Source: Bacteroidota bacterium
GTDB lineage: Bacteria; Bacteroidota; Bacteroidia; Palsa-948
Assembly (NCBI GenBank): GCA_003164895.1
Contig: PLUL01000071.1
Location: 6,679-70,678, forward strand
Direction of reading: 5' to 3'
Length of the DNA: 64,000 bases
Shown here one piece after another: positions 9,999-47,995 of this stretch (the first letter of the stretch is position 1; each line of letters starts with the position of its first letter). Both the position numbers and the translations under genes were made by a program. The notes beneath the pieces are model-generated. The model ran no database searches, had not been told where the DNA came from, and worked only from the letters and a program-made list of their open reading frames with translations.

Positions 9999-12900
9999 TC
10001 ACCTCACAAGCTGCACAAAACCTTTATAGGTAGAGTCGGGCAGGGCATGTGCTTTTTTATCTACTTGTCCGGCTATTTTTACAATAAAATAATACACGCC
10101 ATCGGGCGCTTCTTCTCCGGCAGTGGTTTTGCCATCCCATCCGTTGTTGCGCTGGGTGGAGGTGAACATGAGTGTTCCCCATCGGTCAAATATTTGCAGG
10201 GAATATTTTTCGTACGGGCAAACTCCGGGTATGTAAAACATATCGTTTATTCCATCTCCGTTTGGCGAGAAAACATTGGGGATTAATTTTTTCTGAAAGC
10301 AGGGTTCGGATAAAACTATAATGGAATCAACGCCTTTGCATCCTGCCGTATCGTAAATGGCAAAGGTATAAACCATGGTATCGCCCAGTCCCATAATAAG
10401 CACCGAAGGACAATTGCTGCAGCTCAATCCGGTATCGGGGCTCCAGTGAAAATTATAAGGTGGCAAACCTCCGCTGTAATTTGTGGTAACGCTGATAATG
10501 CTATCCAACGGCACATGCACTATGTGCGGACCATTTATTGAAACATTTATCACATTGGTAACCGTAACAGAGCCGGTGAGATTGGTTGCCTTAATCTGGC
10601 AGAGACTACCATCGGGTAAGGTATTTCCAAGAGAAAGAACAGGATTGAAATTTCCAGGATTGGTGTAGATATGACAGGTATCTCCGCCAAGGGTATTTAC
10701 AACAATTCCGTCTCCGAAACTCCATTCAAAATACTGCGCATTAATACTGGTGGCATGAAAGCACACTTTAAGCGGATTGCATCCGGCAGTGGGAGCAAAG
10801 CTGAACGACCCAACAGGACCCGGCACCACAATAATGCTGTCGAGTATAAGTGAATCTGTACAACCTCCGGGATTTGTTACAGTGAGTGTAACATTATAAA
10901 CTCCCGGAAGAGTGTAAGTGTGTGTGGGGTTCTGAAGAGCAGAACTGGAACCGTCACCAAACAACCAATTCCAAGCTGAAACAAATCCCTGCGATGAATC
11001 TTTGAATGTTACTACAAGATTTCCGCATCCTACACTTAAAATTGTATCTCTAAAGTGAGCAGTGGGTTTGAGAATGCGAACTTTTTCTTTTATGGTGCTG
11101 TCGCATCCGTTTGTATCGCGCACCGTTAATATTACAGTATATAAACTGTCGTGCGAGTAGGTGTGAGTAATGCTGCTGATGGGATTATGTGTGGAATCAA
11201 TGCTGCCATCGCCAAAGTTCCATAAATAAGTTCCACCCACCACATTGGTGCCCGATGCATTAAATGTGAGCTGAATTCCTTTGCATGAAAAAGTATCTAC
11301 CGTAAAAGCAGGGTAGGGGAATGTGGCTTGAATGTAATTAGTTTTAACAATTGTTTTGGTGCATTGGTTGGTATCCTTCACCGTCATTGTTACGGAATAA
11401 ATTCCGGTAGATGTATAGGTGTGTGTGATAGAATCTTTGTGAGTGGTAAAGATGGGAGAACCATCGCCAAAATTCCATGTCCAAAGTACAAGCGCTGAAT
11501 CCGGAACCGACTTATCAGTAGAAGTGTCGTGAAAAGTTACTATCAGCGGACGGCACCCTGTAAGTTTGTTGGCATAAAAATAGGGATAAGGACCCAGCGC
11601 TCTAACCGTATCAATCACGGAGTTCTTGCACCCGTTCACATCGGTGATGATAAGTTTAACCGGATATTGCCCCGTAGCATTATAGGTATAGGCAGGATTT
11701 ACGATGATGGAAGTATCTGCCAGTGTGGATGGGTCGCCAAAGTTCCAGAACACAGAGTCTGCATCCTGTGAAGTGCTTGTAAAGTTTTCGGTGAACGGAT
11801 AACAACCGCTTGTATTTGCTACCGTGAAATTTGCAATAGGTTTTGCAATAACTAATGGACTGGAAATGGTATTAGAACATTTAGAAGAATAATTATATGC
11901 CGTGAGTGAAATTGTATATGGTCCTCTCACCAGATAGGTGTGAACAGGAGTTTTATTGTTCGATGTATCCACTTTCCCGTCTCCAAAATTCCAGACAAGA
12001 GAATCCGCACCTTCCGATGTGCTGGAGAAATGAACGGTAAAATAAGTTGTACAACTCAGCGTGAATGTAAATGCTGCTTTAGGCGGAAGTATCACCACCT
12101 TCTTTTTTATGGAAGTATCTGCACAGCCGTGATTGTAGGCGATCAAATATACTTTATACGTTCCGGTGTCGCCATAAACATAAATAGGATTTTGCATGAT
12201 GCTCGAACCGCCATCACCAAAACTCCAATGCCATCCAGTTACATTTCCGGTTGATGAATCAGAAAAAGTTACAGGTAATCCGTAACAAACTGTATCCTTC
12301 AATATTCCGAAATTGGCAACGGGAGTACTTCCCACTTTGATGCAATTTGCACAAATAAAAGAATCCACACATCCGCTTACAGTATGAATAATTAATTTCA
12401 CAGTATAAACTCCGGTGGCTGTATAAGTGTGAGAAGTTCCGGGAACAGTAAAAGTGGCATTGTTACCATCTCCATAATACCATTGATATGTTGCAATTGC
12501 GCTTAATGGACTGGTGCTAGTACTCAAAAAATTTACGGTGAGTGGAGCGCATCCGCTGTCAGGCGCATGAGTAAATCCTGCAATTGGAGGAGAAATCATG
12601 ATGAAACTATTCTTCCTGATGGTGTCTGAACAGGGTCCGCTGCTATTCGTTGCGATAAGAGAAACGGAATAAGTTCCGATGGCTGTGTAGGTGTGTGCAG
12701 GATTCTGAATATTGGAAGTCGGACTTCCATCGCCAAAGTTCCAAATATAATTTGTTGCTCCTGTAGAATTATTTGTGAAATGAACGTTGAACGGAACAGA
12801 ACATGCAATCATTGTATCGGCAACAAAATTTGCAACTGGAGTTTGGTTTACGGTAACAATTCCGGTAGTGGTGCCATTGCAACTTCCATTACTCGCGTTA

Positions 12901-14234: not shown

Positions 14235-15749
14235 TTGAATCCATTTAAACGCATCGCATCGCAAACAGCCATCTACGGTTTGCCTACTATTGTTGGGAGG
14301 CTGCTGAATTATTTACTCGTTCCGATTTACACGCGTTGTTTTTCTCCGCCCGAATATGGAACCGTGAACGAGATGTATGCTTACGTTTCTTTTCTGCTGA
14401 TTGTACTTACTTATGGAATGGAAACTGCGTTGTTTAATTTTTCGCGTTTGCACGACGACAAACAAAAAGTGTATTCTACTATTCTTGCGTGCATCACCAT
14501 CACATCAGGAGTTTTTATTGCGGGACTTACAATTTTCAGCCAACCTATTGCGGATTTAATTCGTCATCCCGAACATCCTGAATATATCACATGGTTTGCG
14601 CTCATTCTCGGACTGGATGCAATTTCAGCTATTGCTTTTGCAAAATTAAGGGAGCAGAACAAAGCAAAAAAATTCGCCGTTATTAAAACCCTGAACATCG
14701 GAGTAAATATTCTTTTCAATTTATTTTTCATCGTCATCTGCCCGAAAGTTTTGCATCATCCCAACAGCACATTCTATCCGTTCATTCAAAAAATATATTC
14801 CCCAGAGATTGGCATCGGATATATTTTCATTTCAAATCTTATTGCAAGTGTGGTAACACTTCTTGTTCAATTACCATCTATTATCACTGCTTCATCAATT
14901 TTTCAAAAGGGCGAAAGAAAGATTTTTGATTTTTCAATGCTCAAACTTATTCTTCCCTACGCACTTCCGTTGCTCATTGCAGGTCTTGCCGGAATGACGA
15001 ACGAAACGATTGACAGAATTCTTCTCAAATATCTTCTTCCATCAAACATTGCTCTCACGCAAGTAGGAATTTACGGAGCTTGTTATAAAATTTCTATCAT
15101 CATGACCATGTTCTGGCAAACATTCCGCTACGCTGCCGAACCATTTTTTTTCGCACAGGCAAAAGAAAAAGATGCGAAAAAAACTTACGCGCATGTGATG
15201 AATTATTTTGTAATTGTTTGCATGATTATTTTTCTTGGCACGATGGCGAATCTAAGCTGGATAAAATATTTTGTCGGAAAAGATTATCGGGTTGGACTGA
15301 ACGTGGTGCCGATACTTTTGCTCGCCAATTTTTGCATCGGTGTATTTTTCAATCTTTCCATCTGGTACAAACTTTCTGATAAAACAAAATATGGTGCATA
15401 CCTCACTGTGTTTGGAGCAGCCATTACATTGATTGGAAATTTTGTTTTCATTCCAATTTATGGATACATGGCATCCGCCTGGGCAACGCTTGCTTGTTAT
15501 GCAGCAATGATGGTTGTCTCTTACATTCTTGGAAACAAACATTACCCTGTGAATTACGACCTGAAAAGATTCTTAGGATACGTTACATTATCGTTAATTT
15601 TGTACGCTTTAAGTGAATACTTTGTGTTTGAATCTCATAAAGTAGAATTGGTGATGAAGAATTCACTGTTGTTAGTTTTTGTAATTGTTGTTTTTATTTT
15701 TGAACGAAAGAATTTATCTGTCAATAGAAATGAAAGTCAGAATAATTAA
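14235..15749 (+). CDS. oligosaccharide/polysaccharide flippase (Wzx-like, MOP superfamily)
   Basis: 504 aa and polytopic (about 12-14 hydrophobic segments). N-terminus [38 protein letters not shown] is typical of Bacteroidetes Wzx-like flippases. Apparent TTG start: an in-frame stop lies 4 codons upstream and there is no upstream ATG. Confidence 0.8.
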
Positions 15750-34314: not shown

Positions 34315-37300
34315 ATGAAAAAAATAATTATTCTCTTTTTTCTTTTTATCATTTTTAAAATTTCATTAGCGCAGACAGGAACTGTTACCATTACCCCAAC
34401 ATATTCTGTTTGTCTCGGCACAGTTGTAACCATGACAGCGAGCGGTTTTGTTGCGCCAACCATTACACGATGGGAAACATCACCTAATAATAATCCGCCA
34501 TGGACTGCGATTGCTTCTTCTAATTCTCCTACGATCACAGTTACGGCATCAGCTTCTCTTTATTATAGAGCGGTGGCTACAACAGGTCTTGCTGCAACCA
34601 ACTCCGCACTTCTAACTATTAATCAGCCATCAGCAGGAACAGTTTCATCAAATGCAACCGTATGTTCAGGAATTAACAGCGGAACATTAACACTATCAGG
34701 AACTTTTACTTCTGTTAATTTCTGGGAATATTCTATTGATGGTGGAAATACCTGGACTCCAATTTCAAATACAACCACTTCACAAAATTATTTGAACTTA
34801 ACAACATACACTCAATACAGAGTCGATATGACAAACGGAATTTGTCCGTCAGCAAAGGCAACACCTGCCATAATCACTGTGAATCCAACTTCTATCGGAG
34901 GAACAGCTGCGGGAACTGCAACTGTTTGTTCCGGCTCAAATGGCGGAACATTACTATTGAGTGGATATTCTGGAAGTGTTATCAAATGGCAATCATCAAC
35001 TGATGGAGATATTACATGGACAAATATTACGAATATTACAAATACAAATAATTATTCCAACATCACGCAAACAACCGATTACAGAGCGGTGGTTCAAAGT
35101 GGAACATGCGCTTCAGCAAATTCATCGTCTGCAACCATTTCTGTTTCCCCTGTTTCGGATGGAGGAACAATTTCTGGAGCGGCTTCGGTTTGCAGTGGAG
35201 CAAATAATGGCACATTAACTTTAAGCGGACAGACAGGAACTATTTTGAATTGGAGTTCCTCAATTGATGGCGGAAATACTTGGACACCGATTGCAAACAC
35301 AACATCTTCACAAAATTATTCCAACTTAATTGCGACAACAATGTATTTGGCAACGGTGCAGAACGGTTCATGTGCTTCTGCAAATTCAACTTCAGCAACA
35401 ATTACAGTTTCTCCTGGATCAATTGGTGGTATTGTTTTAGGAGCAACTTCAACTTGTGCAGGTTCAAACAACGGAACATTGACTTTAAGCGGATACACTG
35501 GAAATATTGTCAGATGGCAATCATCGGTTGACGGAGGAATAACTTGGGCAAACATTACAAACACATCCGCTTATAATAATTATTCAAACTTGGCACAGAC
35601 TACTGATTTCAGAGCGGTAGTTCAAAACGGAATTTGTGCTGCTGCAAATTCTTCCATAGCAAGAATAACCATCGTTCCCATTTCTGATGGCGGAACTGTG
35701 AATAGTAACGCAACGGTATGTTCAGGTGCAAATAACGGAACGCTTCAACTTATTAATTACACCGGTACTGTTGCTCAATGGGAAAAATCCACCGACAATG
35801 GCTTTAACTGGAATATAATTTCAAACGGGACCGATACGCTCAGTTATTCCAACCTAACAATAAAAACTTTATTTCGAGCGCTTGTTCAAAGCGGAACTTG
35901 CACTGCAAATTATTCCACACCAGCAACTATCACAATAAATTCTCTATCTGTCGGTGGAATTATTTCAGGTGCTGATACAATTTGCAGCGGTTCTAATAGT
36001 GGTAATTTAATTTTAAGTGGATATTTTGGCAGCATTGTGAGATGGCAGTCATCAACAGATGGCGGTGTATCGTGGAATAATATTTCCAACACCACAGCAA
36101 TTTATAATTATGTAAATATTGTTACCACTACAAATTATAGAGCGGTGATTCAGAACGGAGGATGCCCTGCTGCGAATTCTGCCGATGCAATTATCACCGT
36201 GTTTCCTGTTTCGGCTGGAGGAAATCTTTCTCCCGCAGCATTTTCTGCTTGCAATGGAATCAATAACGGAACAATTATTTTAAGCGGACATTCTGGAAAT
36301 ATTATCAAGTGGCAATCATCGATTGATGGCGGAGTAACATGGATGGATATTGCAAATACATCTATTGCTCAGGATTTTCAAAACCTTACTGCAACTACAA
36401 TTTACAGAGCTGTTGTTCAGAACGGACAATGCGCGCCTGCTTATTCGGCAGTATCAACAATCACTGCATCTCCTCAAACTGTTGGCGGAACTGTTTCTGG
36501 AAACGATACCGTTTGCACCGGAACAAATAATGGTTCACTTGTGCTGAATGGATTCACTGGAAGTATTCTCTACTGGGAAAAATCTATTGATGGAGGGTTA
36601 ACCTGGACAACAATTTCAAATACTACTGCGATGCAGAATTATTCCAACCTTTTAATTACAACAATGTATCATGCCGTTGTTCAAAGCGGTTCGTGTGCAA
36701 CAGCAAATTCGGCAAGTGCAACAATTTTAGTTTATCCTGCAACAATTGGCGGAAGTGTTCTCGGAAGTAAAGTTGTCTGCGACAGTTCTTCAACTGGATT
36801 ATTAACTTTATTTGGACATACAGGAAATATTCTTCGCTGGGAAAAATCTTTTGATAGCGGAATTACATGGACTCCTATTGTTAGCGCATCAAATACAATT
36901 TCTTATTCTGGAATTAAAACAGTAACTATGTTCCGTGCAGTGGTGCAAAGCGGAATATGTGTTTCTGCTGTTTCTGCACCGGCAACTGTTTCACTTTCTT
37001 TGCCTGTTCAAGCGGCATTTACCGATGTGATTAACGGAGCAACGGTTATTTTCACCAATACAAGTAATGGAAATATCGGAACAAGTGCTTGGGATTTTGG
37101 AGATGGAACTACAAGTGCTACTACCAACACAGCGCACAATTACATTGCAAACGGAACTTATCTTGTAAAATTAATTGTTGCCGATTCCTGCGGAAGCGAT
37201 ACGACAGCGCATATTGTTACCATAAATGGAGTTGGAATTAAGGAATTGTCATATAACAATCCTGAAGTGAAAGTTTTTCCGAATCCATCCAATGGGGTTT

Positions 37301-37494: not shown

Positions 37495-37728
37495 CGAAAA
37501 TATTTCTTCAATGACAATATATTTTCTATTTTTGTCTACCTCCATTTTATTAAATGACACAATTGTTTCATTTTTAAAATATTTGCTGCATATATATGCA
37601 TGCTTTTTGTTTTATAAATTCTGCCAAAGAATAAATAATCAATGCAAATAATAATTCAGAAATATTAAATGTTTACAGATAGTAACATCACGCATTATAA
37701 AACTAACATACTTACTAATTTATTAAAG

Positions 37729-40473
37729 ATGAAAACAATCCAATTACTTTTCGTTGTTATGCTTATTTTTTTACGTATGAGCATTCATGCGCAAAACGTT
37801 GTTCCTGAAAATAACAGCGCAATGTATTTTAATCGTTGTGGGCAAGTAGAGTATGAGAATTTTTTGCGTGAAAAAGACCCTATGTATGACATCAAAAGGC
37901 AAGAGGCAGAAAAAACTATTGCCAAGAAAATAAATGAAATGAATAATGCGAGGCAGAGTGGTATTCCACAACCACAATCGCAATATATAATTCCAATTGT
38001 GTTTCATGTGTTGTATAATACAACAGCGCAAAATATTTCTGACGCACAGGTGCAATATAATCTTAATCAATTAAATCAGGATTGGTCGCGTACAAACACC
38101 GATGCAAGTAACACTCCTTCGGCATGGCAAAGTATTGCTGCCAATATGAATGTAACGTTTTGTCTTGCAACGCAAGACCCCAGTGGAGCTCCCACCACCG
38201 GTATTATTCATAAGTCAACAACGGTTACTTCCTTCTCATCGAATGATTATGTAAAAAGTTCTGCCCAAGGTGGCGATGACCCTTGGGATAATACCAAGTA
38301 TTTGAATATTTGGATTTGTAATTTGGGAGGTGGATTACTTGGTTACAGTGCATTTCCGCCTGTCACTTCAACATGGGGTGCAGTAATATATTATACCACA
38401 GTTGGAAGTTTAGCACAACCTAATTCTGCAGGGGGTGCTTACGGTTACGGTCGAACACTTTCACATAACGTTGGACACTGTTTTAATCTTTATCATACTT
38501 GGGGAGATGATGCCGGAGCGTGCACGGGTACTGATTATGTAAGTGATACTCCAAATATGGCAGATGCTACATACGGTTGTCCAAGTGGAGTAGTAACCGA
38601 TGCATGTGGTGCTGGTTCTGACGGTAGCCCTGGTTCAAATATTGCACCGGGTCGAATGTATCAGGATTTTATGGATTATACCGATGATATGTGCTATAAT
38701 ATGTTCACTACAGGTCAACGAACAAGAGTGCAAAGCGCAATTACATCTTACTTAATGACGGTAGCGAACAATTCCGCAACTGCATGTAGTGCATCACCCT
38801 CATTATCCGTTTCCATTATAGGCGGGAATAACAGTATTTGTAATGGAAATTCAGATTCGCTTTTTGCATCAGTGAGTGGCGGCACATCTCCTTATAATTA
38901 TTCGTGGAGCACAGGTCAAACCGATGCACTAATATTAACGAGTCCAACTTCCACCACCACGTATACCGTAACTGTTACAACCGGCAGCCTTGTTGCAACA
39001 GCAACAACTGTAGTTACAGTAAATTCTGTTTCTGCTACAATTACAGGCAATACTTCAATTTGTTCGGGACAAAATACAACTCTCTCTGCATCCGGTGGAG
39101 CAACTTATTCTTGGAATACAGGAGTAACAACAACTTCCATCATTGTAAATCCAACCGTACTTACCACTTATACCCTAACCTCCGCTACTGCCTCTTGTGT
39201 TGCAAAGGCAACTACAACTGTTACCGTAAATCAATTGCCAACTGTTTCCATATCGGGCAACACGACTATTTGCCTTGGGCAAAACACAACTCTAAGTGCA
39301 TCAGGAGGGGGAACGTATCTTTGGAACACAGGACCAACTACATCTGCAATTACTGTTATGTCAACAGCTTTTACAACCAATTCGTATTCGGTTACAGTTT
39401 CAAATGGAAATTGTTCAAGTGTAGCTTCTGTTGCAGTAACTGGTACATATCCAACTGCTAATTTTACATCGAACACCCCACTTTGTCTTGGTGATCCGGC
39501 AGTATTTACAGATTTATCTACCGGAGGTATCAGTTCTTGGTATTGGAATTTTGGTGATGGAGAAATATCAAATTCACAAAGCCCATCACACGCATATTCC
39601 GTTGCAGGAACTTATACTGCCTCGCTGACAGCAACGAGTCAATATGGATGTAAGGACTCACTCACACAAACTGTAGCAGTAAATCCAAAACCTGCTTCAA
39701 GTTTCATGTCTAATACTCCGGTTTGTCTGGGTGTTCCAACTGTATTTACCGATGGTTCAACCGGTGGAGTCGTTTCATGGTCTTGGACATTTGGTGAGGG
39801 CGGCAATTCCACATTACAAAATCCTGCATTTACTTATACGTCAGCTTCCACTTATACCGTTGCTGAGATTGTAACAAATCAGTACGTATGTAAAGATAGC
39901 AGTACAAAAAGTGTAACCGTAATGAACGGGCTAAATGTAAATTTAACTTTGGTTCAAGACATATCAAATCCATTATTGTGGAATGTGTACGATACAATTA
40001 CCGGAGGCACTGCTCCGTTTACATATCTATGGAACTTTGGCGATGGCAATACTTCTACGCTCCAATATCCATCACATACCTACTCTGTGTCCGGACATTA
40101 TGCTATATCGTTAACTGTTACTGATGCCAATGGATGTATCAGTTCCGTAGATGATTCCACTTATAGAATTTCTTCTGCCGGCATAATTCAATATGTTATT
40201 GTTGTAGATCCGCTTGTAACTGCTACTCAGAATTTACAATTCACAAATGACATTAGTATTTTTCCAAACCCATCAAACGGAAGCTTCATTTTTAACTGCA
40301 CGGTTTCAAAAGGAGAGTTGGAAATTTATAATGTAATGGGAGAAAAAGTGTATTCATCTTTAATAACAAATCAATCTACTTCTATAAATATTGATGCGCC
40401 CAATGGCATTTACTTTCTACAATTAAAAACGGAGCAGGTGATAGCAACAAAAAAAATTGCGATAAATAAGTAA
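37729..40473 (+). CDS. M43 (pappalysin/cytophagalysin)-like metzincin homolog with a non-canonical zinc site (HNxxH), SprB-type repeats, two PKD domains, and a C-terminal T9SS (type-A) sorting domain
   Basis: Signal peptide plus pro-region. Catalytic-region motif LSHNVGHCFNLYHTWGDDAGACTGTDYVSDTPN aligns with the M43 HExxHxxGxxH...DTP block, but the DNA reads CAT AAC (His-Asn). SprB-like repeats (ICNGNSDSLFASVSGGTSPYNYSWSTGQTD and similar). PKD motifs WNFGDGEIS and WTFGEGGNS. C-terminus ISIFPNPSNGSFIFN...IYFLQLKTEQVIATKKIAINK. The track start at 37669 is probably an extension. Confidence 0.8.
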   Translation: MKTIQLLFVVMLIFLRMSIHAQNVVPENNSAMYFNRCGQVEYENFLREKDPMYDIKRQEAEKTIAKKINEMNNARQSGIPQPQSQYIIPIVFHVLYNTTAQNISDAQVQYNLNQLNQDWSRTNTDASNTPSAWQSIAANMNVTFCLATQDPSGAPTTGIIHKSTTVTSFSSNDYVKSSAQGGDDPWDNTKYLNIWICNLGGGLLGYSAFPPVTSTWGAVIYYTTVGSLAQPNSAGGAYGYGRTLSHNVGHCFNLYHTWGDDAGACTGTDYVSDTPNMADATYGCPSGVVTDACGAGSDGSPGSNIAPGRMYQDFMDYTDDMCYNMFTTGQRTRVQSAITSYLMTVANNSATACSASPSLSVSIIGGNNSICNGNSDSLFASVSGGTSPYNYSWSTGQTDALILTSPTSTTTYTVTVTTGSLVATATTVVTVNSVSATITGNTSICSGQNTTLSASGGATYSWNTGVTTTSIIVNPTVLTTYTLTSATASCVAKATTTVTVNQLPTVSISGNTTICLGQNTTLSASGGGTYLWNTGPTTSAITVMSTAFTTNSYSVTVSNGNCSSVASVAVTGTYPTANFTSNTPLCLGDPAVFTDLSTGGISSWYWNFGDGEISNSQSPSHAYSVAGTYTASLTATSQYGCKDSLTQTVAVNPKPASSFMSNTPVCLGVPTVFTDGSTGGVVSWSWTFGEGGNSTLQNPAFTYTSASTYTVAEIVTNQYVCKDSSTKSVTVMNGLNVNLTLVQDISNPLLWNVYDTITGGTAPFTYLWNFGDGNTSTLQYPSHTYSVSGHYAISLTVTDANGCISSVDDSTYRISSAGIIQYVIVVDPLVTATQNLQFTNDISIFPNPSNGSFIFNCTVSKGELEIYNVMGEKVYSSLITNQSTSINIDAPNGIYFLQLKTEQVIATKKIAINK

Positions 40474-40597: not shown

Positions 40598-41446
40598 ATG
40601 AAAATATTTAAATGGATAGGGATAATTATTCTGACTTTAATTGTAGTAGGTGTAACTGCATATTTTGCTTACGTCCGTCCGTTCATGAAAAAGATGGAAG
40701 AAACAACTGTCGTGCAATACGACAAAGAACTTACACTTGTTTTAGGCGGAGGTGGCAACAGCGGAATATTAGTGTCGGATAGTTTGGTTGTTGTGATTGA
40801 TACTAAAATGCATGAAGCTGCTGATCTGCTTTTTAAAAAAGTAGAAGAGCTTGCTGGTAATAAACCAATTATTGTTATTAATACACATTTTCATCCCGAT
40901 CATACCGGAGGAAATAAATTTTATAAAGGTCAAACCATTATTGCAGGAGGTAATTACACGAAAGAATTCTGGATAGGAGAAGCCGATGAAGAAAGTTTGC
41001 CAACTCAATGGTTAAAAGACAGAATGGATATTAAAATGGGAGACGATACCATAACCCTGATCAATATCGGTCGAAATGCTCACACTGCAAGCGATGTTGT
41101 TGTTTATTTACATAAAAGAAAAATGTTGTTTGGCGGAGATGTAATTCTCAACAAACAAGCCCCGGTGTTTATGGGAGTTGCAGATCCCGATGGTTATTTG
41201 TACGCATTGGATATGTTGCCAAAACAATTCGATATTCAGAAAATAGTTCCGGGTCACGGGGCTGTAGGAGGAATTGAAATCATAACCAACTTCCGTCAAT
41301 ATTTTGTTGATATGAATACCGCAGCAAATGATGATTCAAAAAAGGATGAACTTGTTACAAAATATAAAGACTGGGTTCAGATGCCAATTTTTATGTCTCC
41401 GGGCGCTACAATAAGTGCAATCAAAAAGAAAGCACAGAAAAAATAA
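40598..41446 (+). CDS. MBL-fold metallo-hydrolase (metallo-beta-lactamase superfamily), membrane-anchored
   Basis: N-terminal TM helix IGIIILTLIVVGVTAYFAY. HxHxDH metal-binding motif INTHFHPDHTGGN, and a downstream His (VPGHGAVGG). 282 aa. Confidence 0.85.
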   Translation: MKIFKWIGIIILTLIVVGVTAYFAYVRPFMKKMEETTVVQYDKELTLVLGGGGNSGILVSDSLVVVIDTKMHEAADLLFKKVEELAGNKPIIVINTHFHPDHTGGNKFYKGQTIIAGGNYTKEFWIGEADEESLPTQWLKDRMDIKMGDDTITLINIGRNAHTASDVVVYLHKRKMLFGGDVILNKQAPVFMGVADPDGYLYALDMLPKQFDIQKIVPGHGAVGGIEIITNFRQYFVDMNTAANDDSKKDELVTKYKDWVQMPIFMSPGATISAIKKKAQKK

Positions 41447-41483
41447 TTTTTAGTTGGTCTTTCCTCATCGAAGATCTTTTCGG

Positions 41484-41553
41484 TAGGTTAACCTTTACCA
41501 AATTTAATAGTTCATCACCAATCAAATAATTTTTGGGCACTGCTTTTATTCAA
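41484..41553 (-). pseudogene. remnant of the 3' end of a paralog of gene 46897..47355 (direct-repeat copy A)
   Basis: 41487-41553 is about 90 percent identical to 46900-46966. On the minus strand it reads HLNKSSAQKLFDW*, against HLNKTNAQKLFDWLGTIKFGKG* in the intact gene. Lies in the 86-bp gap between the MBL gene and the TPR-kinase gene. Confidence 0.55.
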
Positions 41554-41563
41554 ATGATTTATC

Positions 41564-43524
41564 AAAAACATATTTTGTATCGGAATATTTTGATGATATG
41601 CGTTATCCTGTTCGGCATAACTTCTTTTGCTCAAGAGCAGTATAACATGGACTCGCTTCAAACAATTCTTAAAAAGACAGGACAAGATACAAATCGCGTA
41701 ATCATTTTAAGCGATTTTGGGTTTGAAAAATACAAACTGGGTGATTATGATAAATCCATGTATTATTTATTGATGGCTAATTCGCTTGCAGAAAAATTAA
41801 ATTATAAAAAAGGTATTGCTTCTTCTCTGAACAGGATTGGAAATATTTGTTGGAGTCGAAGCAAATGTGTTGAGGCACTTGAATATTATTCAAAAGCCCT
41901 TGCAATCCGAAAACAAATTGGCGATAAACAAGGAGCAGCAGGCACCATCAGCAACATGGGAAATATTTATGGCAATTGGGGAGATTATGCAAAAGCGCTT
42001 GAGCAATATTTAGAAGGATTAAAAATGAGGGAAGAAATTCACGACACGTTAGGTGTTGCAAAATCATTGACCAATATCGGAAATATTTATTTGCATGAGA
42101 AAAACTTTTCAAGAAGTTTGGAGTATTATTTTCAATCTCAAAAAATATATGAGAGGATTGATGACCAATACAACAATGCGATGGTGTTGACCAATATCGG
42201 CATTACCTATTTGCAGATGAAGGAATATTCTCAATCACTCGTCTATTATTTAAAAAGTTTAACTATTGAGGAAAAGATAGGAGATAAATTGGGAATTGCT
42301 AATTCGCTAAACGGTATTGGTAACATTTATGAAAACAAAAACAGCAATGAAAAAGCGATAGAATATTTTTTGAACGCCAATCGTATTTTAAGTGAATTAG
42401 AAGATAAAAAAGGGATGGCGGAAACATACAATAGCTTGGGAAATATTTATGAAAAACTGAATGACAGCGAAAAAGCGTTGAATTGTTTTCGAAAACAAAT
42501 GAAGTTTGCAAAGGAAAGTGGCAACAAGGAAAATATTGCTGCCAGTTATCAGAGCATTTCGGACCACTATTACAAAAAAATGGATTATAAAAATGCGTTT
42601 GATAACTACAAATTTTTTTCCATAGAAATGGATTCTTTCCTAAACGAATCAACCATTAGTAAAACATCTGAAATGGAAGCAAAATACCAAAACGAAAAAA
42701 AGCAAAAAGAAATTTCTATATTAACAAAAGACAATGAGATAAAAGAAATCCTTCTCAAAAAAAATCGCATACAAATTTTTGCACTTGCAACCGGCGTTGC
42801 GGTTTTATTTCTCTTGGGCTTTTTGCTTTATCAGTGGAATCAATTACAACACAGACAGCGAATAAATGCCGAAATAGTAAAACAACAAGATATGCAATTA
42901 AAAACAATTATCGAAACGCAGGAAAAAGAACAAAACCGTATTGCAAAAGATTTGCACGATGGTGTGGGACAAATGCTTTCTGGTTTAAAATTATCATTGC
43001 AAAGTGTATCGGAAGAAATAAATAATAACAGTTTTCTTTCAGAAAAAAAATTGCATTCCTCCATAAAAATAGTAGATGATGCCGTCAGCGAAGTTCGTTA
43101 CATCGCGCACCAAATGATGCCGCATGCATTGAATATGTTAGGTCTTATCCCCGCCATTGAAGATATGCTTGACAAGAGCTTGAGTAATACGAATATTAAA
43201 TTTGAATTTGAACATTTCAATGTCTCAGGTCGTTTTGAAAAAAACATAGAAATTAATTTATACAGAGTAACTCAGGAGTTGATAAATAACTGCATGAAAC
43301 ACGCACAAGCAAGCGAAATAATTCTTCAATTATTCAAAAATGAAAATCAATTGGTATTGGTAATGACCGACAACGGAAAAGGTTTTAATGCTGATGAATC
43401 AGGATATAAAGGTTTAGGATTAATGAATATTTCGACAAGAATTAAATCAATTAACGGAGACGTGAAGTTTCAACCCGGAATGGATTGCGGAACAACAGTT
43501 ACCATAAAAATTCCATTAACATGA
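41564..43524 (+). CDS. TPR-repeat sensor histidine kinase (TPR array, one TM segment, HisKA_3, HATPase_c; NarL/LuxR-class partner)
   Basis: N-terminal signal/TM, then about 8 TPR repeats (GNIYxNxGDYxKALEYYxK pattern). TM segment IFALATGVAVLFLLGFLLY. H-box KDLHDGVGQMLSGLKLSL (HisKA_3). C-terminal GLGLMNISTRIKSINGDVKF ATPase motifs. The track TTG start at 41533 is probably an extension; the ATG at 41564 is preferred. Confidence 0.85.
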
Positions 43525-44171
43525 AGCGAATAAAAACTTTAATTGTTGACGACCATCAATTAGTTATAGATGGGATAAAATCACTTATAAAAAATATTCC
43601 GGAGATTGAAGTGGTTGCCGAAGCAAATAACGGAAAAGAAATTTTCGACCTTGCTTCTCTTTCGCAAATAGATGTTGCGCTGATGGATATTAACATGCCC
43701 GTTTTAAACGGCATTGATGCTACGAAACAATTAAGGCAACTCCACCCTCAGATAAAAGTATTGGCGCTTTCCATGCACGATGATAAAACCATGATTGAAA
43801 GTATGCTGAACGTAGGAGCTTTGGGATACATTATGAAGAATGCAAATAAAGACGAATTAATCTTAGCGATAAAAAAAATAGCAGCAGGACAAAAATATTT
43901 TTCAAGCGATGTGGCGCTTACCCTAATGGGAAAACAATCCACCGAAATCATTTCCGAGAAAAATAAAACAGAAATTGATACGCTCACAAAACGGGAAATA
44001 GAAATTATGAAATTAGTCGCACTCGGTTTTTCCAGCATAGAAATCGGAAAAAAACTTTTTATCAGTCCGCGCACAGTTGAAACACACCGCACTAATCTGT
44101 TTGAAAAATTGCAAGTAAAAAACGTAGCAATGCTAATCAGGTACGCCATGAAAAACGGGTACATGGATTAA
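43521..44171 (+). CDS. response regulator, NarL/LuxR family (REC + HTH_LuxR)
   Basis: MKRIKTLIVDDHQLVIDGIKSL...VALMDINMP is the receiver domain with the phospho-acceptor Asp. C-terminus LTKREIEIMKLVALGFSSIEIGKKLFISPRTVETHRTNLFEKL is a LuxR-type HTH. ATGA start/stop overlap with the kinase. Confidence 0.9.
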   Translation: MKRIKTLIVDDHQLVIDGIKSLIKNIPEIEVVAEANNGKEIFDLASLSQIDVALMDINMPVLNGIDATKQLRQLHPQIKVLALSMHDDKTMIESMLNVGALGYIMKNANKDELILAIKKIAAGQKYFSSDVALTLMGKQSTEIISEKNKTEIDTLTKREIEIMKLVALGFSSIEIGKKLFISPRTVETHRTNLFEKLQVKNVAMLIRYAMKNGYMD

Positions 44172-44290
44172 TCGGTTCTTCTTTCTTTCAAATCAATTTA
44201 CTAAAAACACGAGTATTCTCGTAGATGATTTACGAGTAATCCCGCATATTTATATTAAGCCGCTATCTTATATTTGAATGTATAAAATCA

Positions 44291-45265
44291 ATGAACGAAC
44301 CCCAAAAACTTATGCCTATGAAAAAAATAATTCTACTCTTTGTGTGCTTTGCATCTTTAATTATTAAAAATCAGGCACAAACCGTATCCGACTTGGACGG
44401 CAATGTTTACGACACCGTAAAAATTGGCACACAAGTTTGGTTAAAAGAAAATTTAGCAACCACCAAATACAATGATGGTACTTTAATTCCATTGGTAAAA
44501 GATAGTATGCAATGGATTGGTTTGACTACTCCCGGATATTGCTGGTATAGAAACGATTCTGCTACTTACAAAAATCCTTATGGCGCTTTATATAATTGGT
44601 ACACGGTAAATACTGGCAAACTGTGTCCTACTGGTTGGCATGTGCCATCAAATGCAGAATGGCATACCTTGATTTTATTTCTTGACCCAAGTGCAACAGA
44701 TTGTTATTGCACAGAAAGTGCAACAGCGGGAGACAAATTGAAAGAGGCAGGAATAACTCATTGGGGTACAGGAAACACTGCAACTAATAGCAGCGGGTTT
44801 ACTGCTATGCCTGGCGGTTTCAGGAATTATTATGATAAAAATTTTGAAGGACGTACTTCGGTTGCATATTTTTGGAGTTCAACAGTAGGCGCATCCGGCA
44901 CCACAATATGGCACAGATGGATGCCGAATAATAACGCCAATATATTCGAATATCTTGATCAAAAAATTCAGGGCATGTCGGTACGCTGTTTAAAAGATTC
45001 TATATCTACCGGATTAAATAACATTAATTATGAAAACAGATTAAAAATATTTCCTAATCCAGCAACTGATATTATAAATATTAATTGTACTGAAAAGCAG
45101 ATTATAAAAATGCAAGTTTATAATGCAATTGGAGAATGTGTAATCCAAAAAGAATTGAATAATTATACAAATCAAATTGATGTTAGTTTTTTGCCGAAAG
45201 GAATTTATGTGATTAAACTTACAGGAGTAAATTGGACAGAGCAACATAAATTGACTAAAGAATAA
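44291..45265 (+). CDS. FISUMP (Fibrobacter succinogenes major paralogous) domain protein with a C-terminal T9SS (type-A) sorting domain
   Basis: Signal peptide. LDGNVYDTVKIGTQVWLKENLATTKYNDGTLIP...YGALYNWYTV...CPTGWHVPSNAEWHTLI are characteristic FISUMP motifs. C-terminus RLKIFPNPATDIININCTEKQ...GIYVIKLTGVNWTEQHKLTKE is the Por_Secre_tail. Confidence 0.8.
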   Translation: MNEPQKLMPMKKIILLFVCFASLIIKNQAQTVSDLDGNVYDTVKIGTQVWLKENLATTKYNDGTLIPLVKDSMQWIGLTTPGYCWYRNDSATYKNPYGALYNWYTVNTGKLCPTGWHVPSNAEWHTLILFLDPSATDCYCTESATAGDKLKEAGITHWGTGNTATNSSGFTAMPGGFRNYYDKNFEGRTSVAYFWSSTVGASGTTIWHRWMPNNNANIFEYLDQKIQGMSVRCLKDSISTGLNNINYENRLKIFPNPATDIININCTEKQIIKMQVYNAIGECVIQKELNNYTNQIDVSFLPKGIYVIKLTGVNWTEQHKLTKE

Positions 45266-45318
45266 TATTATATCTGAAATAAAAATTCATTCAAACAACA
45301 ACATTAAAACTAACTACC

Positions 45319-46617
45319 ATGAAAAAAATCATACTCCTAATTATGCTGATTTTTACGATAGTAAAAATTCAAGCTCAGAATTATCAAATCAGTTTTGCAG
45401 GAACAGGCGCAAGCGCAACTGTTGATTCTGTAAAAATTGAAAACCTATCTCAATGCACCGATACTTCCATTGGCGGAAGCAATATTTTAAATCTCACTCC
45501 AATGGTAACGGGAATAAACGAAAATACGATGGCAGATAATGTGATACACATTTATCCTAATCCAATTTCAGGTTTTTGTTCGGTAGAATTTAATGCAATT
45601 GATGGAGGCAATACAACTCTTGAACTTGATAACATAAACGGAAAAAAAATTGTGCAAGTACATGAATTATTATCACAAGGAAATCATACTTACTACCTGA
45701 GCGGGATCAGCACCGGAGTTTATATTCTGAAAATAGAATCGGATAAATATTCTTATTCGTCAAAAATTGTAAGTATAAATGCAGAATCAGGTACTGCCGA
45801 AATAAAACATATTGGAACAAATCCTATCACAAATAAACAAGATACTTTGATTGGGGGAAAAATAAGTGGATTGGAAAATAACAATATCCTTTCTCTTATT
45901 TCAATGCAATACAACACAGGCGACACCCTGAAGCTGACTGGAAAATCTGGTAACTATCGTACTGTTGTTATGTTAATGCCATCCCAAAGCCAAACTGTAA
46001 CTTTTACTTTTGTTAATTGTACCGATGCCGATAATAACCATTACGCTGTGGTGCAAATAGGCACTCAGGTGTGGATGGAAGAAAATTTAAAAACCACCAA
46101 GTATCGCGATGGCTCAAGCATTCCGAATGTGCCAGACAGCGCTACATGGAGAAATACAACCTCCGGAGCATATTGCGATTATCACAACCTTCCTGCCGAA
46201 GGCGCTGCTTATGGTCATATCTATAATTTTCGTGCAGTAGCAGATGTTCGTAACATGGCGCCCGTTGGCTGGCACGTAGCGAGTGATTCAGAATGGACGG
46301 TATTTACAAATTTTCTTGGAGGCGCCAACATTGCAGGACGCAAGCTGAAAGAAAATTGCAACACGCGTTGGGCATACCAGGATACCACTTGGGGAAACAA
46401 TATAAGTGGCTTCACAGCACTTTGTGCAAACTTCCGCAACACATCAGGAGCTTGGAGTATGGCACCGAACAATGACCACGACTGTGGCTTTTGGACTTCT
46501 ACTTCGGACGGTACAGCATTTGCGTGGGCAAGATTGCTGCGTTGGTGTTATGGTGATGTGTGGATTGGACCTCCCATGTATAATTCTGGATATTCCGTTC
46601 GTTGCATAAAAGATTAG
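45319..46617 (+). CDS. FISUMP domain protein with an internal T9SS-CTD-like beta-sandwich domain (inverted domain order relative to the neighbouring paralog)
   Basis: Signal peptide MKKIILLIMLIFTIVKIQAQ. Residues ~75-150 IHIYPNPISGFCSVEFNAIDGGNTTLELDNINGKKIVQVHE...GVYILKIESDKYSYSSKIVSI resemble a Por_Secre_tail domain but sit mid-protein. C-terminal half has FISUMP motifs: AVVQIGTQVWMEENLKTTKYRDGSSIP...GWHVASDSEWTVF. Confidence 0.75.
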   Translation: MKKIILLIMLIFTIVKIQAQNYQISFAGTGASATVDSVKIENLSQCTDTSIGGSNILNLTPMVTGINENTMADNVIHIYPNPISGFCSVEFNAIDGGNTTLELDNINGKKIVQVHELLSQGNHTYYLSGISTGVYILKIESDKYSYSSKIVSINAESGTAEIKHIGTNPITNKQDTLIGGKISGLENNNILSLISMQYNTGDTLKLTGKSGNYRTVVMLMPSQSQTVTFTFVNCTDADNNHYAVVQIGTQVWMEENLKTTKYRDGSSIPNVPDSATWRNTTSGAYCDYHNLPAEGAAYGHIYNFRAVADVRNMAPVGWHVASDSEWTVFTNFLGGANIAGRKLKENCNTRWAYQDTTWGNNISGFTALCANFRNTSGAWSMAPNNDHDCGFWTSTSDGTAFAWARLLRWCYGDVWIGPPMYNSGYSVRCIKD

Positions 46618-46743
46618 AGAAACAAAATGAGCAACAATATTTTTATTTTTTTGCACACTCATTTTTCACTTTATTAAGATAAAGCACTATTGTTTCTTCA
46701 AAATTATGGCGAACAAGAAAAAGTTCTTTAAAAAATATATGCC

Positions 46744-46860
46744 ATGAAAACTTCTACGAACCAAGCTTTAACTTTTTGGGAAAAGTATTTTGTAGTAATG
46801 GTTGTTATCTTTTTTGTTGTCTTTGTATCAGTAATTCTTGCAGTAGCAGCATTTTTATAG
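46744..46860 (+). CDS. possible small single-TM membrane peptide (38 aa)
   Basis: ATG at 46744 gives MKTSTNQALTFWEKYFVVMVVIFFVVFVSVILAVAAFL*. Hydrophobic C-terminal half. Lies in a ~280-bp intergenic gap. Below the ORF-track length cut-off. No other support. Confidence 0.25.
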   Translation: MKTSTNQALTFWEKYFVVMVVIFFVVFVSVILAVAAFL

Positions 46861-46896
46861 TGTACAAAGATTAGCTATTGAGAATTTGTATTTGAA

Positions 46897-47355
46897 TCAA
46901 CCTTTACCAAATTTAATTGTTCCTAACCAATCAAATAATTTTTGGGCATTGGTTTTATTCAAATGAGTATATCCGTTTCCTTTTTCCTGTTTTTCGGCAA
47001 AGCATAACTCATTGTTAAAATCATTTTTATATAACCTGTAATTCTCTCTGCTCCAATTTATAGGAGCATTTGTTCCTGCCTCTTGTATAGCCAAATTCAG
47101 ATCTTTAACCAATTCATCAAATTCATCTTTGTTTTTTATGTACACCGATTTAATGTCGGGTTTTTTCCCGGCAGCAATATTTTGAAACGACAAATGAATG
47201 AAATAAGTACTGTCTTCTATTTCTGCATTAATCTCCTTGGTATAGCTTGCCGTAATGGTGCCTATGCTGTCTTTACTAATATCAACCCATCTTATTTGAG
47301 CAGTTGCAGAAATAGATATTAAAGCAAATAAGGAAAATGTAATTATTGTTTTCAT
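46897..47355 (-). CDS. secreted protein of unknown function
   Basis: 152 aa. Signal peptide MKTIITFSLFALISISATAQ. Its 3' 67 bp are duplicated at 41487-41553. Confidence 0.55.
   Translation of the reverse strand: MKTIITFSLFALISISATAQIRWVDISKDSIGTITASYTKEINAEIEDSTYFIHLSFQNIAAGKKPDIKSVYIKNKDEFDELVKDLNLAIQEAGTNAPINWSRENYRLYKNDFNNELCFAEKQEKGNGYTHLNKTNAQKLFDWLGTIKFGKG
46900..46966. repeat. 67-bp direct repeat, copy B (pairs with 41487-41553), bracketing the 5.4-kb kinase / regulator / FISUMP module
   Basis: ACCTTTACCAAATTTAAT(A/T)GTTC(A/C)T(C/A)ACCAATCAAATAATTTTTGGGCA(C/T)TG(C/G)TTTTATTCAAATGA in the same orientation at both sites. No similarity extends beyond either end. Confidence 0.8.
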
Positions 47356-47599
47356 ATTAGTATTGATTTATAGAAGCAATGGGGATGGAATGTTTACTTC
47401 TGTTCGGTTGTAAAAGTATTAAAATTATTTTTCAGCGATAAAGTTGTAAAGAATGTTTTCATTTTTCTTTCCTGTGGGAGGCAGATTGGTAATGGCAATC
47501 TGGTCTTTACAGGAATGAAATTAGAAGAGCGAAAAATAATTTATCCGACTTCTTTCTTTCTGTGATATAATTCAGAAAGTGTTGCAATTCATCAGCTAT

Positions 47600-47995
47600 T
47601 CACTTTTCCGTTTTTAATGTCTTGAGCCAATCCAATGCCTCACTCTTTTTATTGAACGCTCTGAATTTAAAAGTATTATTAAAAAATTTATTAAATATAT
47701 CTACCAGCAACTTAACAGCTATCGAATTATTCACAATGGCAGATGCGATAAAATAATCCTTTAAATATTTGCTTGCATATTGCATGGCTTCCTCGTTGAA
47801 ATTAAAAAACACGCCTCCTTCAAAAAGATGCAAGGTCTCTTTAGAATTACAACCTAGCTTTTTATAAATATCAAAGTGTATTTTAATTTCTTCAAGATTA
47901 ACTTTTCCGTCTTCTTTCATTCTCATGTGAACGATCTTTTCATCATCCACCCAAATAGTTGCCGATTTGGTATCTATTATTTCAGTTCTACTCAT
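47600..47995 (-). CDS. hypothetical cytoplasmic protein (STAS/SpoIIAA-like fold suspected)
   Basis: 131 aa with no signal peptide. Clean ORF with a Bacteroidetes-like codon bias. No recognisable catalytic motif. Confidence 0.45.
   Translation of the reverse strand: MSRTEIIDTKSATIWVDDEKIVHMRMKEDGKVNLEEIKIHFDIYKKLGCNSKETLHLFEGGVFFNFNEEAMQYASKYLKDYFIASAIVNNSIAVKLLVDIFNKFFNNTFKFRAFNKKSEALDWLKTLKTEK

Follow-up and report, generated by a model that had tools for sequence, protein, structure and literature searches.

How does a small gene come to have what looks like a second, damaged copy of its own end lying 5.4 kb away, on the far side of four other genes? This question is raised by a locus in the window (the whole 64-kb stretch of DNA that was analysed), where direct repeats bracket a TPR-HisKA_3 kinase gene, a LuxR regulator gene and two genes for FISUMP/T9SS proteins, a gene content proposed by an earlier sequence-only reading and upheld by Pfam (Table 1). 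The 5.4-kb block appears to be what an old insertion of DNA left behind, an ordinary scar and not an active mobile element. The layout had already been regarded as the footprint of an insertion or recombination, a view that is supported here; copy A denotes the repeat copy away from the intact gene, copy B the one at its end.

Table 1. Features of the repeat-bracketed block and its flanks, in window coordinates.
Feature	Position	Strand	Remarks
Metallo-beta-lactamase-fold (MBL) hydrolase gene, left flank	40598..41446	+	Pfam
Copy A, putative displaced and decayed 3' end of a 152-aa-family gene	41488..41557	-	22 codons plus TAA, two in-frame TGA; between MBL gene and kinase
TPR-repeat HisKA_3/HATPase_c sensor kinase	41554..43524	+	656 aa from ATG 41554; alternative start 41593 gives 643 aa
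Response regulator, receiver and LuxR/GerE domains	43521..44171	+	Start overlaps kinase stop
FISUMP (Fib_succ_major) protein FIS1, C-terminal T9SS sorting domain	44291..45265	+	Pfam
Second FISUMP protein, FIS2	45319..46617	+	Por_Secre_tail-like domain, residues 78-151, N-terminal to FISUMP domain
279-nt spacer between the converging FIS2 and 152-aa genes	46618..46896	.	98-99% identical in sister lineage
Copy B, working 3' end of the 152-aa gene	46897..46966	-	22 codons plus TGA stop
152-aa gene, signal-peptide protein	46897..47355	-	No Pfam match; predicted PUR/Whirly-like fold
Upstream leader/promoter stretch, 80 nt	47356..47435	-	Travels with the 152-aa gene; outer edge is the synteny break relative to sister lineage and L013
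DUF7793 gene, right flank	47600..47995	-	Pfam; 92%-identical sister-lineage counterpart adjoins a holA-like gene, not the 152-aa gene

The repeat pair and the gene end

The two copies (A, 41490-41557; B, 46899-46966) are 68 nt long and identical at 63 of 68 bases (93%), with perfectly matching in-register stretches of 23 and 19 nt and a start-to-start distance of 5409 nt. The direct orientation and the roughly 90% identity first reported were retained, and the similarity survived exact alignment; the length, given as 67 nt, and the coordinates of copy A, which were off by 3-4 nt, had to be corrected. A 50-nt probe from the repeat, with up to 3 mismatches allowed, matched exactly two sites in the window, for an expectation of 0 derived from 100 shuffles.

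Read on the minus strand, copy B gives HLNKTNAQKLFDWLGTIKFGKG followed by a stop, that is, the last 22 codons and the stop of the intact ORF 46897..47355, as had been claimed. Copy A gives, in the same frame as the gene end, HLNKSSAQKLFDW, two in-frame stops, TIKFGKG and a terminal stop, in agreement with the isolated gene-end fragment carrying a premature stop that was described earlier; a tblastn search with the 152-aa protein recovered it as a 22-residue match, and no further copy of the gene was found in the window. The terminal stop is kept in both copies, as TAA in copy A and TGA in copy B. Homology is limited exactly by the stop codon on one side and, on the other, by the likely start codon of the kinase, which is contained in the final 4 nt of copy A. 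The copies differ at 5 positions, at least 3 of which are derived in copy A when outgroup homologues are taken as reference, and in comparison with the homologues of loci L013 and L011, introduced below, copy A carries the derived state at 3 of the 4 polarisable substitutions, both nonsense codons included. Such a predominance of derived states fits a released pseudo-end, and the sequence supports an interpretation of copy A as a decayed gene-end remnant.

More than 10 contigs from independent assemblies (ENA, JGI, NCBI, Logan), up to 71 kb long, carry both copies with 100% identity, and therefore the structure is not an assembly artefact. At the inner edge of the repeat a weak similarity, CAAATGA[T/G]T[-/A]TATC, extends for some 10 nt and could be junction microhomology. 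Next to the MBL gene, a weak hairpin (about 41456-41493) overlaps the stop codon of copy A.

The bracketed module

The four module genes are intact, co-oriented with the left flank and so tightly packed that only about 450 nt of the bracketed segment are non-coding. Their GC content (0.31-0.37) is similar to that of the flanking MBL, 152-aa and DUF7793 genes, which makes the compositional signal uninformative. The closest kinase homologues are 48% identical and keep the kinase-regulator pair, with neither FISUMP nor 152-aa genes near them.

Regarding mobility functions, Pfam revealed no integrase, excisionase or remnant thereof among the segment genes, and nothing matching the integrase of L011 was found across the 64-kb window. 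Likewise, there is no transposase among the module genes (Pfam), there are no terminal inverted repeats or additional repeats at the segment ends, and neither a tRNA nor an Rfam family was detected nearby. The viral contigs searched for relatives yielded none. A transposon or insertion sequence with target-site duplication was rejected, given the missing transposase and end inverted repeats and a duplication of 68 nt, when 2-14 bp are required. A dispersed intergenic repeat of the REP/MITE kind was also discarded, with only two copies in the window and a 23-nt core that was not found at the loci of 80 related genomes; a metagenome DNA scan for this core returned a single match, an already-known contig. 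The 68-mer being a common intergenic repeat, a possibility considered in the sequence-only reading, is thereby excluded.

The 152-aa gene family

The 152-aa protein is a member of a so far uncharacterised family, with about 230 representatives, whose fold is predicted by modelling to be PUR/Whirly-like, and its closest family comprises four clusters only among 5.8 billion proteins. Together with a leader of 80-90 nt, the gene makes up a portable unit present in at least four contexts. The family member at L013 matches the window from position -90 through the stop codon of the gene and nothing beyond, with about 75% conservation in the repeat stretch compared with about 78% in the rest of the gene, and its gene unit is itself bracketed by roughly 35-nt direct repeats. 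At L011 (metagenome contig Ga0500033_000390), direct repeats of 78 nt (about 90% identical) begin 6 nt past the stop of a 173-aa homologue and bracket 5.1 kb that include a truncated Phage_integrase gene, i.e., a tyrosine integrase. This island resembles the block of the window in the small gene family concerned, in its size, in its location on the 3' side of the gene and in being bracketed by direct repeats. On the other hand, the L011 repeats begin beyond the stop codon, cover a terminator-like hairpin and have an unrelated sequence, and a truncated tyrosine integrase is kept. In three out of three family members with a readable, comparable downstream flank (the window, L011 and L013), direct repeats are present at the gene end or directly behind it.

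Sister lineage and related genomes

A sister lineage, about 8% diverged, has both HK-LuxR-FIS1-FIS2 and 152-aa gene-spacer-FIS2, on contigs that were assigned to one genome by inference from shared samples and similar coverage (3.4-4.1x) in a fragmentary assembly. The 152-aa gene and the module are linked in this lineage, and thus the linked block exists as a unit outside the window locus. A TonB-dependent receptor lies there upstream of the 152-aa gene in place of DUF7793; the unit that changes context includes the 152-aa gene, with its limit at 47435, 80 nt upstream of the gene, and not at copy B. The kinase fragments of the sister lineage found in the cluster are identical C-terminal pieces.

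Divergence between both lineages forms a mosaic, in which stretches with about 1.6% (44577-45444 and 46495-47435) contrast with 7-13% per 200 nt in the stretch 43177-44576 (Poisson P = 3e-8). The low-divergence part marks a recent recombination tract, 2.9 kb or longer, that ends at the synteny break at 47435, so that recombination with one non-homologous end has already occurred at this locus.

Within the host species the 5.4-kb segment is fixed and identical in every contig recovered, and the population is near-clonal across the region (about 99.8% identity). It is for this reason that the segment was not seen coming and going, and the proposed presence or absence of 41554-46899 as a unit in relatives was not observed. 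Exact-protein look-ups of the 152-aa, MBL and DUF7793 proteins gave no empty site, all contexts being occupied. In an NfeD-anchored scan of the GTDB species genomes, MiaB-Lgt-NfeD was conserved, and nothing of the stretch from DUF7793 to MBL was found near NfeD in 80 related genomes. The description of the module as accessory holds in that this stretch is absent beside NfeD in those 80 genomes, but not in the sense of a strain-variable cassette, and it carries no mobility gene. A second insertion site of the module was found neither in the exact-protein contexts nor in the metagenome scan or the loci of the 80 related genomes.

A proposed recombination into a resident gene end

The explanation that we tentatively prefer, at somewhat less than even confidence, is that a single old recombination event left the block as its scar: within the last ~70 bp of a resident gene, an incoming gene copy together with the module displaced the old end. 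A resident copy of the 152-aa gene would once have converged on the MBL gene, and the incoming DNA would have carried its own intact 152-aa gene linked to FIS2-FIS1-LuxR-HK. One incoming end may have paired homologously with the resident gene or its promoter, which would have served as the anchor, and the other, at the kinase start, would have been joined by an illegitimate event at a point 68-78 nt ahead of the resident stop codon, a one-sided process that would correspond to homology-facilitated illegitimate recombination. Ending in copy B, its own 3' end, the incoming gene would then have taken over. Moved 5.4 kb away, the last 22 codons of the resident gene (copy A) would have lost selection and gained two nonsense codons, and would now make up the leader of the kinase gene and probably also its start codon.

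What was observed in favour of such an anchored recombination is the repeat with its frame, decay and sharp limits, along with the absence of mobility genes and the occurrence of the gene plus module as a block in another context. An intact gene, foreign DNA and the end remnant of the same gene follow each other in direct orientation without any recombinase, and the linkage of anchor gene and module expected for a donor is present in another context, the sister lineage, on contigs joined by inference. Since homology between family contexts ends at the stop codon, as seen with L013, donor and resident copies would share exactly that limit. On the other hand, a single transfer would predict equal divergence of the gene and the module from the sister lineage, but they are unequally diverged, so that at least one later exchange must be assumed. 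Among the exact-protein contexts and related loci, no genome was recovered with the ancestral adjacency of the MBL and 152-aa genes, nor one in which the kinase has an upstream region of donor type.

A further point against this explanation is that measurements have shown homology-facilitated illegitimate recombination to be a rare event (PMC5361080, PMC3240628). Orphan gene ends have been proposed to result from this kind of recombination in the Rhs, CDI and Vibrio T6SS effector-immunity arrays (PMC5361080; mechanism PMC3240628). As proposed for the window, in these arrays resident sequence gives way to an incoming module that has its anchor in a conserved stretch, and a resident remnant is shifted downstream without the help of a dedicated recombinase (PMC5361080). 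They contain, however, polymorphic toxin ends and immunity genes, often with several stacked remnants, whereas the window has just one remnant, 22 codons long and from the gene of a small secreted protein, and its inserted genes have regulatory and cargo roles.

Alternative explanations

A site-specific integration of the att type is in our opinion only somewhat less likely. A circular element with a 68-nt gene-end att would have entered the 3' end of the 152-aa gene by means of a tyrosine recombinase; copy B would have restored the frame, copy A would be the other att, and the island would lack an integrase because the enzyme was later lost or worked in trans. Classical attachment sites look much like this 68-nt repeat, whose limits are sharp and in one case coincide with a gene end, and together with the integrase-bearing island that follows the L011 homologue this likeness speaks against an anchored recombination. 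The discrete 5.4-kb segment lies between one working gene end and one pseudo-end, repeat homology halts at the stop codon, and the L013 unit also sits between direct repeats. A precedent is found in e14 and phage 21, which integrate in icd of Escherichia coli: the prophage supplies the 3' terminal codons of a protein gene, as the inserted DNA does in the window, and the old end comes to lie beyond the insert as a direct pseudo-end of 163 bp (pseudo-icd), with homology confined to the coding end (PMC6379469). Nevertheless, those elements have their own integrase and can excise, whereas no integrase, excisionase or remnant is present in the segment or the 64-kb window, whose shorter repeat brackets a two-component system and two T9SS-type secreted proteins. 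Further arguments against an att-type event are that the segment is filled with four intact ordinary genes in the orientation of the left flank, that the kinase start codon falls inside the repeat and that HK-LuxR-FIS1 is at baseline divergence from the sister lineage, as if vertically inherited. Moreover, neither an empty nor a second insertion site appeared in the exact-protein contexts, the metagenome scan or the 80 related loci, and the L011 repeat, besides being placed past the stop codon, is unrelated to the 68-mer.

Cis-mobilisable elements (CIMEs) are integrase-less islands with flanking att repeats, recognised by an att shared with a co-resident or related integrative element. The block of the window is similarly a discrete segment that lacks an internal recombinase gene and lies between direct repeats, of which one coincides with a gene end, but no co-resident or related element or matching att was found.

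We consider it improbable that two full 152-aa paralogues once flanked the module and that the left one later lost its body and promoter in a deletion of ~470 nt, which fused its last 68 nt to the kinase start. The pair would have its origin in a segmental duplication, or else in a circle with gene and module that entered the resident gene by Campbell-type homologous integration. The portability of the gene with its leader is favourable to this history, the divergence of the two copies (7-9%) resembles the baseline between lineages, and two long direct repeats are unstable, so that the loss of one would be expected. Two events are nonetheless required, and their limits would have to be precise, the kinase start for the deletion and the stop codon for the duplication; no known relative has two intact copies, within a closest family of just those four clusters, and the window lacks another copy of the gene.

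That the repeat is a selected DNA or RNA element (a shared promoter, an operator of the LuxR regulator or a structured RNA) and not a rearrangement scar seems very improbable. Copy A lies directly upstream of the kinase start and overlaps it, and both copies contain TAATTTTTGG, close to the -7 box of Bacteroidota (consensus TAnnTTTG). Both are also invariant in the population, which carries no weight in view of its near-clonality. However, neither strand of either copy folds better than shuffled sequences (z from -0.9 to +0.8), there is no Rfam match, the similarity tracks the codon frame of the gene end, stop position included, although a regulatory site has no need of this, and the repeat stretch is no better conserved within the family than the rest of the gene, as noted for L013. 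Finally, chance similarity or an assembly artefact, for which only the AT-rich composition could be invoked, is refuted, as 0 of 100 shuffles gave one extra match, the exact runs are in register and independent assemblers and samples agree on an identical structure.

Significance

The locus reflects ordinary genome plasticity and reveals neither a new kind of mobile element nor a new mechanism. In an uncultured lineage of Bacteroidota from peat or soil, it lets one follow base by base the attachment of a regulatory and secreted-protein module to a small gene, with a discarded gene end that would have found new use as the leader of a kinase gene and probably as its start codon, and it helps in reading the history of a variable region rich in T9SS cargo. 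As an unlikely but wider possibility, the 3' end and immediate downstream flank of the 152-aa family may be a recurrent attachment hot spot for ~5-kb integrase-mobilised islands in uncultured Bacteroidota. If so, it would be a protein-gene counterpart of tRNA att sites, of which the two-component/FISUMP module would be a domesticated, integrase-less member. The 3' side of this small uncharacterised family borders rearrangements repeatedly.

The repeat pair and its surroundings

The four-gene module of kinase, LuxR regulator and two FISUMP proteins is bracketed by two direct 68-nt sequences, copies A and B, which are identical at 63/68 positions and spaced by 5409 nt. A 50-nt probe allowing up to 3 mismatches matched only these two sites in the window, with 0 expected from 100 shuffles. 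In the minus-strand reading, copy B makes up the final 22 codons of the 152-aa ORF (HLNKTNAQKLFDWLGTIKFGKG, then TGA), and copy A keeps the same frame and stop position but reads HLNKSSAQKLFDW, two nonsense codons in a row, TIKFGKG and then TAA; tblastn with the 152-aa protein also recovered copy A, as a 22-residue match. The outer limit of the similarity falls exactly at the stop codon, and the inner one at ...TTCAAATGA, beyond which at most ~10 nt of weaker similarity follow. A previous sequence-only reading of the region had described 67-bp repeats, with copy B as the coding 3′ end of the 152-aa gene: the similarity survives exact alignment and the minus-strand reading bears out that identity; the coordinates of copy A were off by 3-4 nt, and the rest of that reading stands.

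Features of the repeat-bracketed segment and its flanks (window positions)
Feature	Position	Strand	Assignment
Metallo-beta-lactamase-fold (MBL) gene	40598..41446	+	Pfam
Copy A	41490-41557		
TPR + HisKA_3 + HATPase_c kinase	probable start ATG 41554		Pfam
Receiver + LuxR/GerE regulator	43521..44171		Pfam
FISUMP protein (FIS1), C-terminal T9SS domain	44291..45265		Pfam
Second FISUMP protein (FIS2), T9SS-like domain N-terminal to FISUMP domain	45319..46617		Pfam
152-aa gene	46897..47355	-	no Pfam match
Copy B	46899-46966		
DUF7793 then NfeD		-	Pfam

Comparison with homologues showed that the kinase has a normal charged-then-hydrophobic N-terminus when read from ATG 41554, whereas a start at 41593 lacks the charged part, which suggests that translation begins at the former; the start codon would then fall within the final 4 nt of copy A, with copy A itself as the leader. 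Pfam and repeat scans of the segment detected neither an integrase or transposase gene nor terminal inverted repeats, and a search with one tyrosine integrase, that of contig L011 (below), found no relative anywhere in the 64-kb window. A search for Rfam families found none, the single tRNA lies 15 kb off, and the base composition of the segment is not distinct from that of its immediate flanks.

Occurrence within the species and in a sister lineage

Exact-protein look-ups with the 152-aa, MBL and DUF7793 proteins gave more than 10 contigs from ENA, JGI, NCBI (MAG GCA_003168055.1) and Logan, all with the same gene order, and every contig spanning both copies was 100% identical in copies and flanks. 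The arrangement is thus fixed within the species, and its recurrence in several assemblies, together with the probe result, excludes an assembly artefact or chance similarity as the source of the repeat. Neither is it a common intergenic element, a possibility raised at the outset: the 23-nt repeat core is absent from the loci taken from 80 related genomes, and its single hit in the metagenome collection falls in a contig known before, so the repeat is not a dispersed one. Relatives with an NfeD 69-85% identical keep the order MiaB-Lgt-NfeD, and within 10 kb they have no homologue of DUF7793, the 152-aa family, the FISUMP genes, the kinase or MBL. The whole stretch past NfeD is lineage-specific, so an empty site is not reconstructable from species-level relatives.

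A sister lineage was found in three samples, with a coverage of 3.4-4.1x in one assembly. One of its contigs (L126) matches window 43177-45444 (kinase 3′ end, regulator, FIS1 and FIS2 start) at 94.7%, and four others (L014-L017) match 46495-47435 (FIS2 3′ end, spacer, 152-aa gene and 80 nt upstream) at 98.3%. Upstream of the counterpart of 47435 these four carry a TonB-dependent receptor gene in place of DUF7793, whose sister counterpart, 91.7% identical, adjoins a holA-like gene. All four stop within 8 nt, at 46495-46502 inside the second FISUMP gene, across three samples and assemblers, perhaps through strain branching or a repeat. As far as 44576, mismatches amount to 7-13% in each 200 nt (about 8-10% overall), and over 44577-45444 and 46495-47435 to ~1.6%; at the average rate, so few in the low-mismatch region have a probability of 3e-8. 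These alignments point to a baseline divergence of ~8%, to a kinase-to-152-aa-gene block common to both lineages, and to a recent exchange of a tract no shorter than 2.9 kb (44577-47435), the sister lineage being a mosaic. The right end of this tract is the synteny break at 47435.

The 152-aa gene family and its contexts

A word-index search with the 152-aa protein returned only three close clusters, in each of which the gene appears to be a portable unit. In metagenome contig L013, a homologue with 78% nucleotide identity is similar from -90 to the stop codon, where similarity ends, and ~35-nt direct repeats (1668-1702, 2367-2401) enclose it, its leader and a GC-rich hairpin stretch; the contig opens with a tandem array of a 21-nt unit, in about eight copies (1-168). 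In contig L011 (Ga0500033_000390), a 173-aa homologue is followed, 6 nt past its stop, by the first of two 78-nt direct repeats, ~90% identical (10528-10605, 15626-15705), which bracket 5.1 kb including a truncated tyrosine integrase (11247..11822, minus strand). The 78-nt repeat contains a hairpin, CCCATATTACTATATGGG, and a 226-nt paralogous stretch encoding a 67-aa ORF is present at 6839-7064 and 10897-11122. A 40%-identical member (P0125) sits just downstream of a Zn_ribbon_16/DUF6371 gene in the short contig L120 (553-2504), which may be another mobile-element-like context. There is a modest chance that the 3′ side of the family is a recurrent integration hot spot.

In an exhaustive profile search the family grew to ~230 representatives, around 150 aa long and 109 of them at E <= 1e-10; a Pfam domain was found in none. 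The structure predicted from a 66-sequence alignment is confident (pLDDT 92), with PUR-alpha repeats I-II as top PDB matches (TM ~0.5, E 9e-4) and a Whirly-like fold in which two halves, each of beta sheet plus helix, follow a signal peptide.

Age and origin of the scar

With the L013 and L011 gene ends as outgroup, three of the four polarisable differences are derived in copy A (AAT to AGT, TTA to TGA, GGA to TGA). The working form, which is conserved, is copy B, and copy A has drifted. Over 68-70 nt, the latter has gathered 5-6 changes, and intergenic bins differ by ~13% in total between window and sister lineage. As a rough inference, this load resembles the per-lineage non-coding change since the split, dating the event to about the split or earlier, in agreement with the gene-FIS2 junction common to both lineages.

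The layout of the locus shows that a copy of the 152-aa gene had DNA joined into its last ~70 bp, and that a second gene-end copy is now the working one. The original observation is confirmed, and its interpretation in part: the locus is a scar, left by insertion or recombination, in which a gene-end remnant has decayed. The proposal of an accessory 5.4-kb unit is only partly borne out: the module is old, fixed and common to the sister lineage, and the unit switching context takes in the 152-aa gene, up to the sister synteny break at 47435. Nothing suggests present-day mobility of the module.

We tentatively favour one-sided, anchor-type recombination. Incoming DNA, with an intact 152-aa gene linked to FIS2-FIS1-LuxR-kinase, would have paired with a resident 152-aa gene convergent on MBL, and illegitimate joining of the kinase end would have displaced the resident gene end. 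No recombinase is needed, and the homology limit at the stop codon would be explained because family members in different contexts diverge there. Moreover, the sister lineage does show the donor-type arrangement, and an independent sign that fits is the recombination tract at this locus, one end of which is non-homologous. Comparable scars have been proposed for Rhs, CDI and T6SS arrays (PMC5361080), by a mechanism described in PMC3240628; the footprint type is already known, and ours is a further instance.

Att-type integration, as for the e14 prophage, which provides the terminal codons of icd and leaves a pseudo-icd (PMC6379469), is the main rival and somewhat less likely: the sharply bounded 68-nt repeat speaks for it, as does the L011 island with its direct repeats and truncated integrase, but a recombinase is wholly absent with no room for one, the cargo looks ordinary, and most of the module is at baseline divergence from the sister lineage. 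A paralogue-plus-deletion history, which takes two steps, is a less likely possibility. That the repeat is kept as a selected regulatory element is very improbable, and in RNA folding both strands of copies A and B did no better than shuffled sequence.

Domain order and repeats in neighbouring genes

T9SS sorting domains are usually C-terminal; in the second FISUMP protein a Por_Secre_tail-like domain (residues 78-151) stands ahead of the FISUMP domain (245-431). At 34698-36916, within a large gene upstream of the studied region, a 264-nt coding repeat occurs eight times in register, and its translation has an SxDxGxTW-like motif. In the M43/PKD T9SS protease gene (37669..40473), the ERZ27254241 contig carries an additional PKD repeat of 240 nt (window 39633-39922), giving 1014 aa against 934 aa in the window and thus repeat-number variation within the species.
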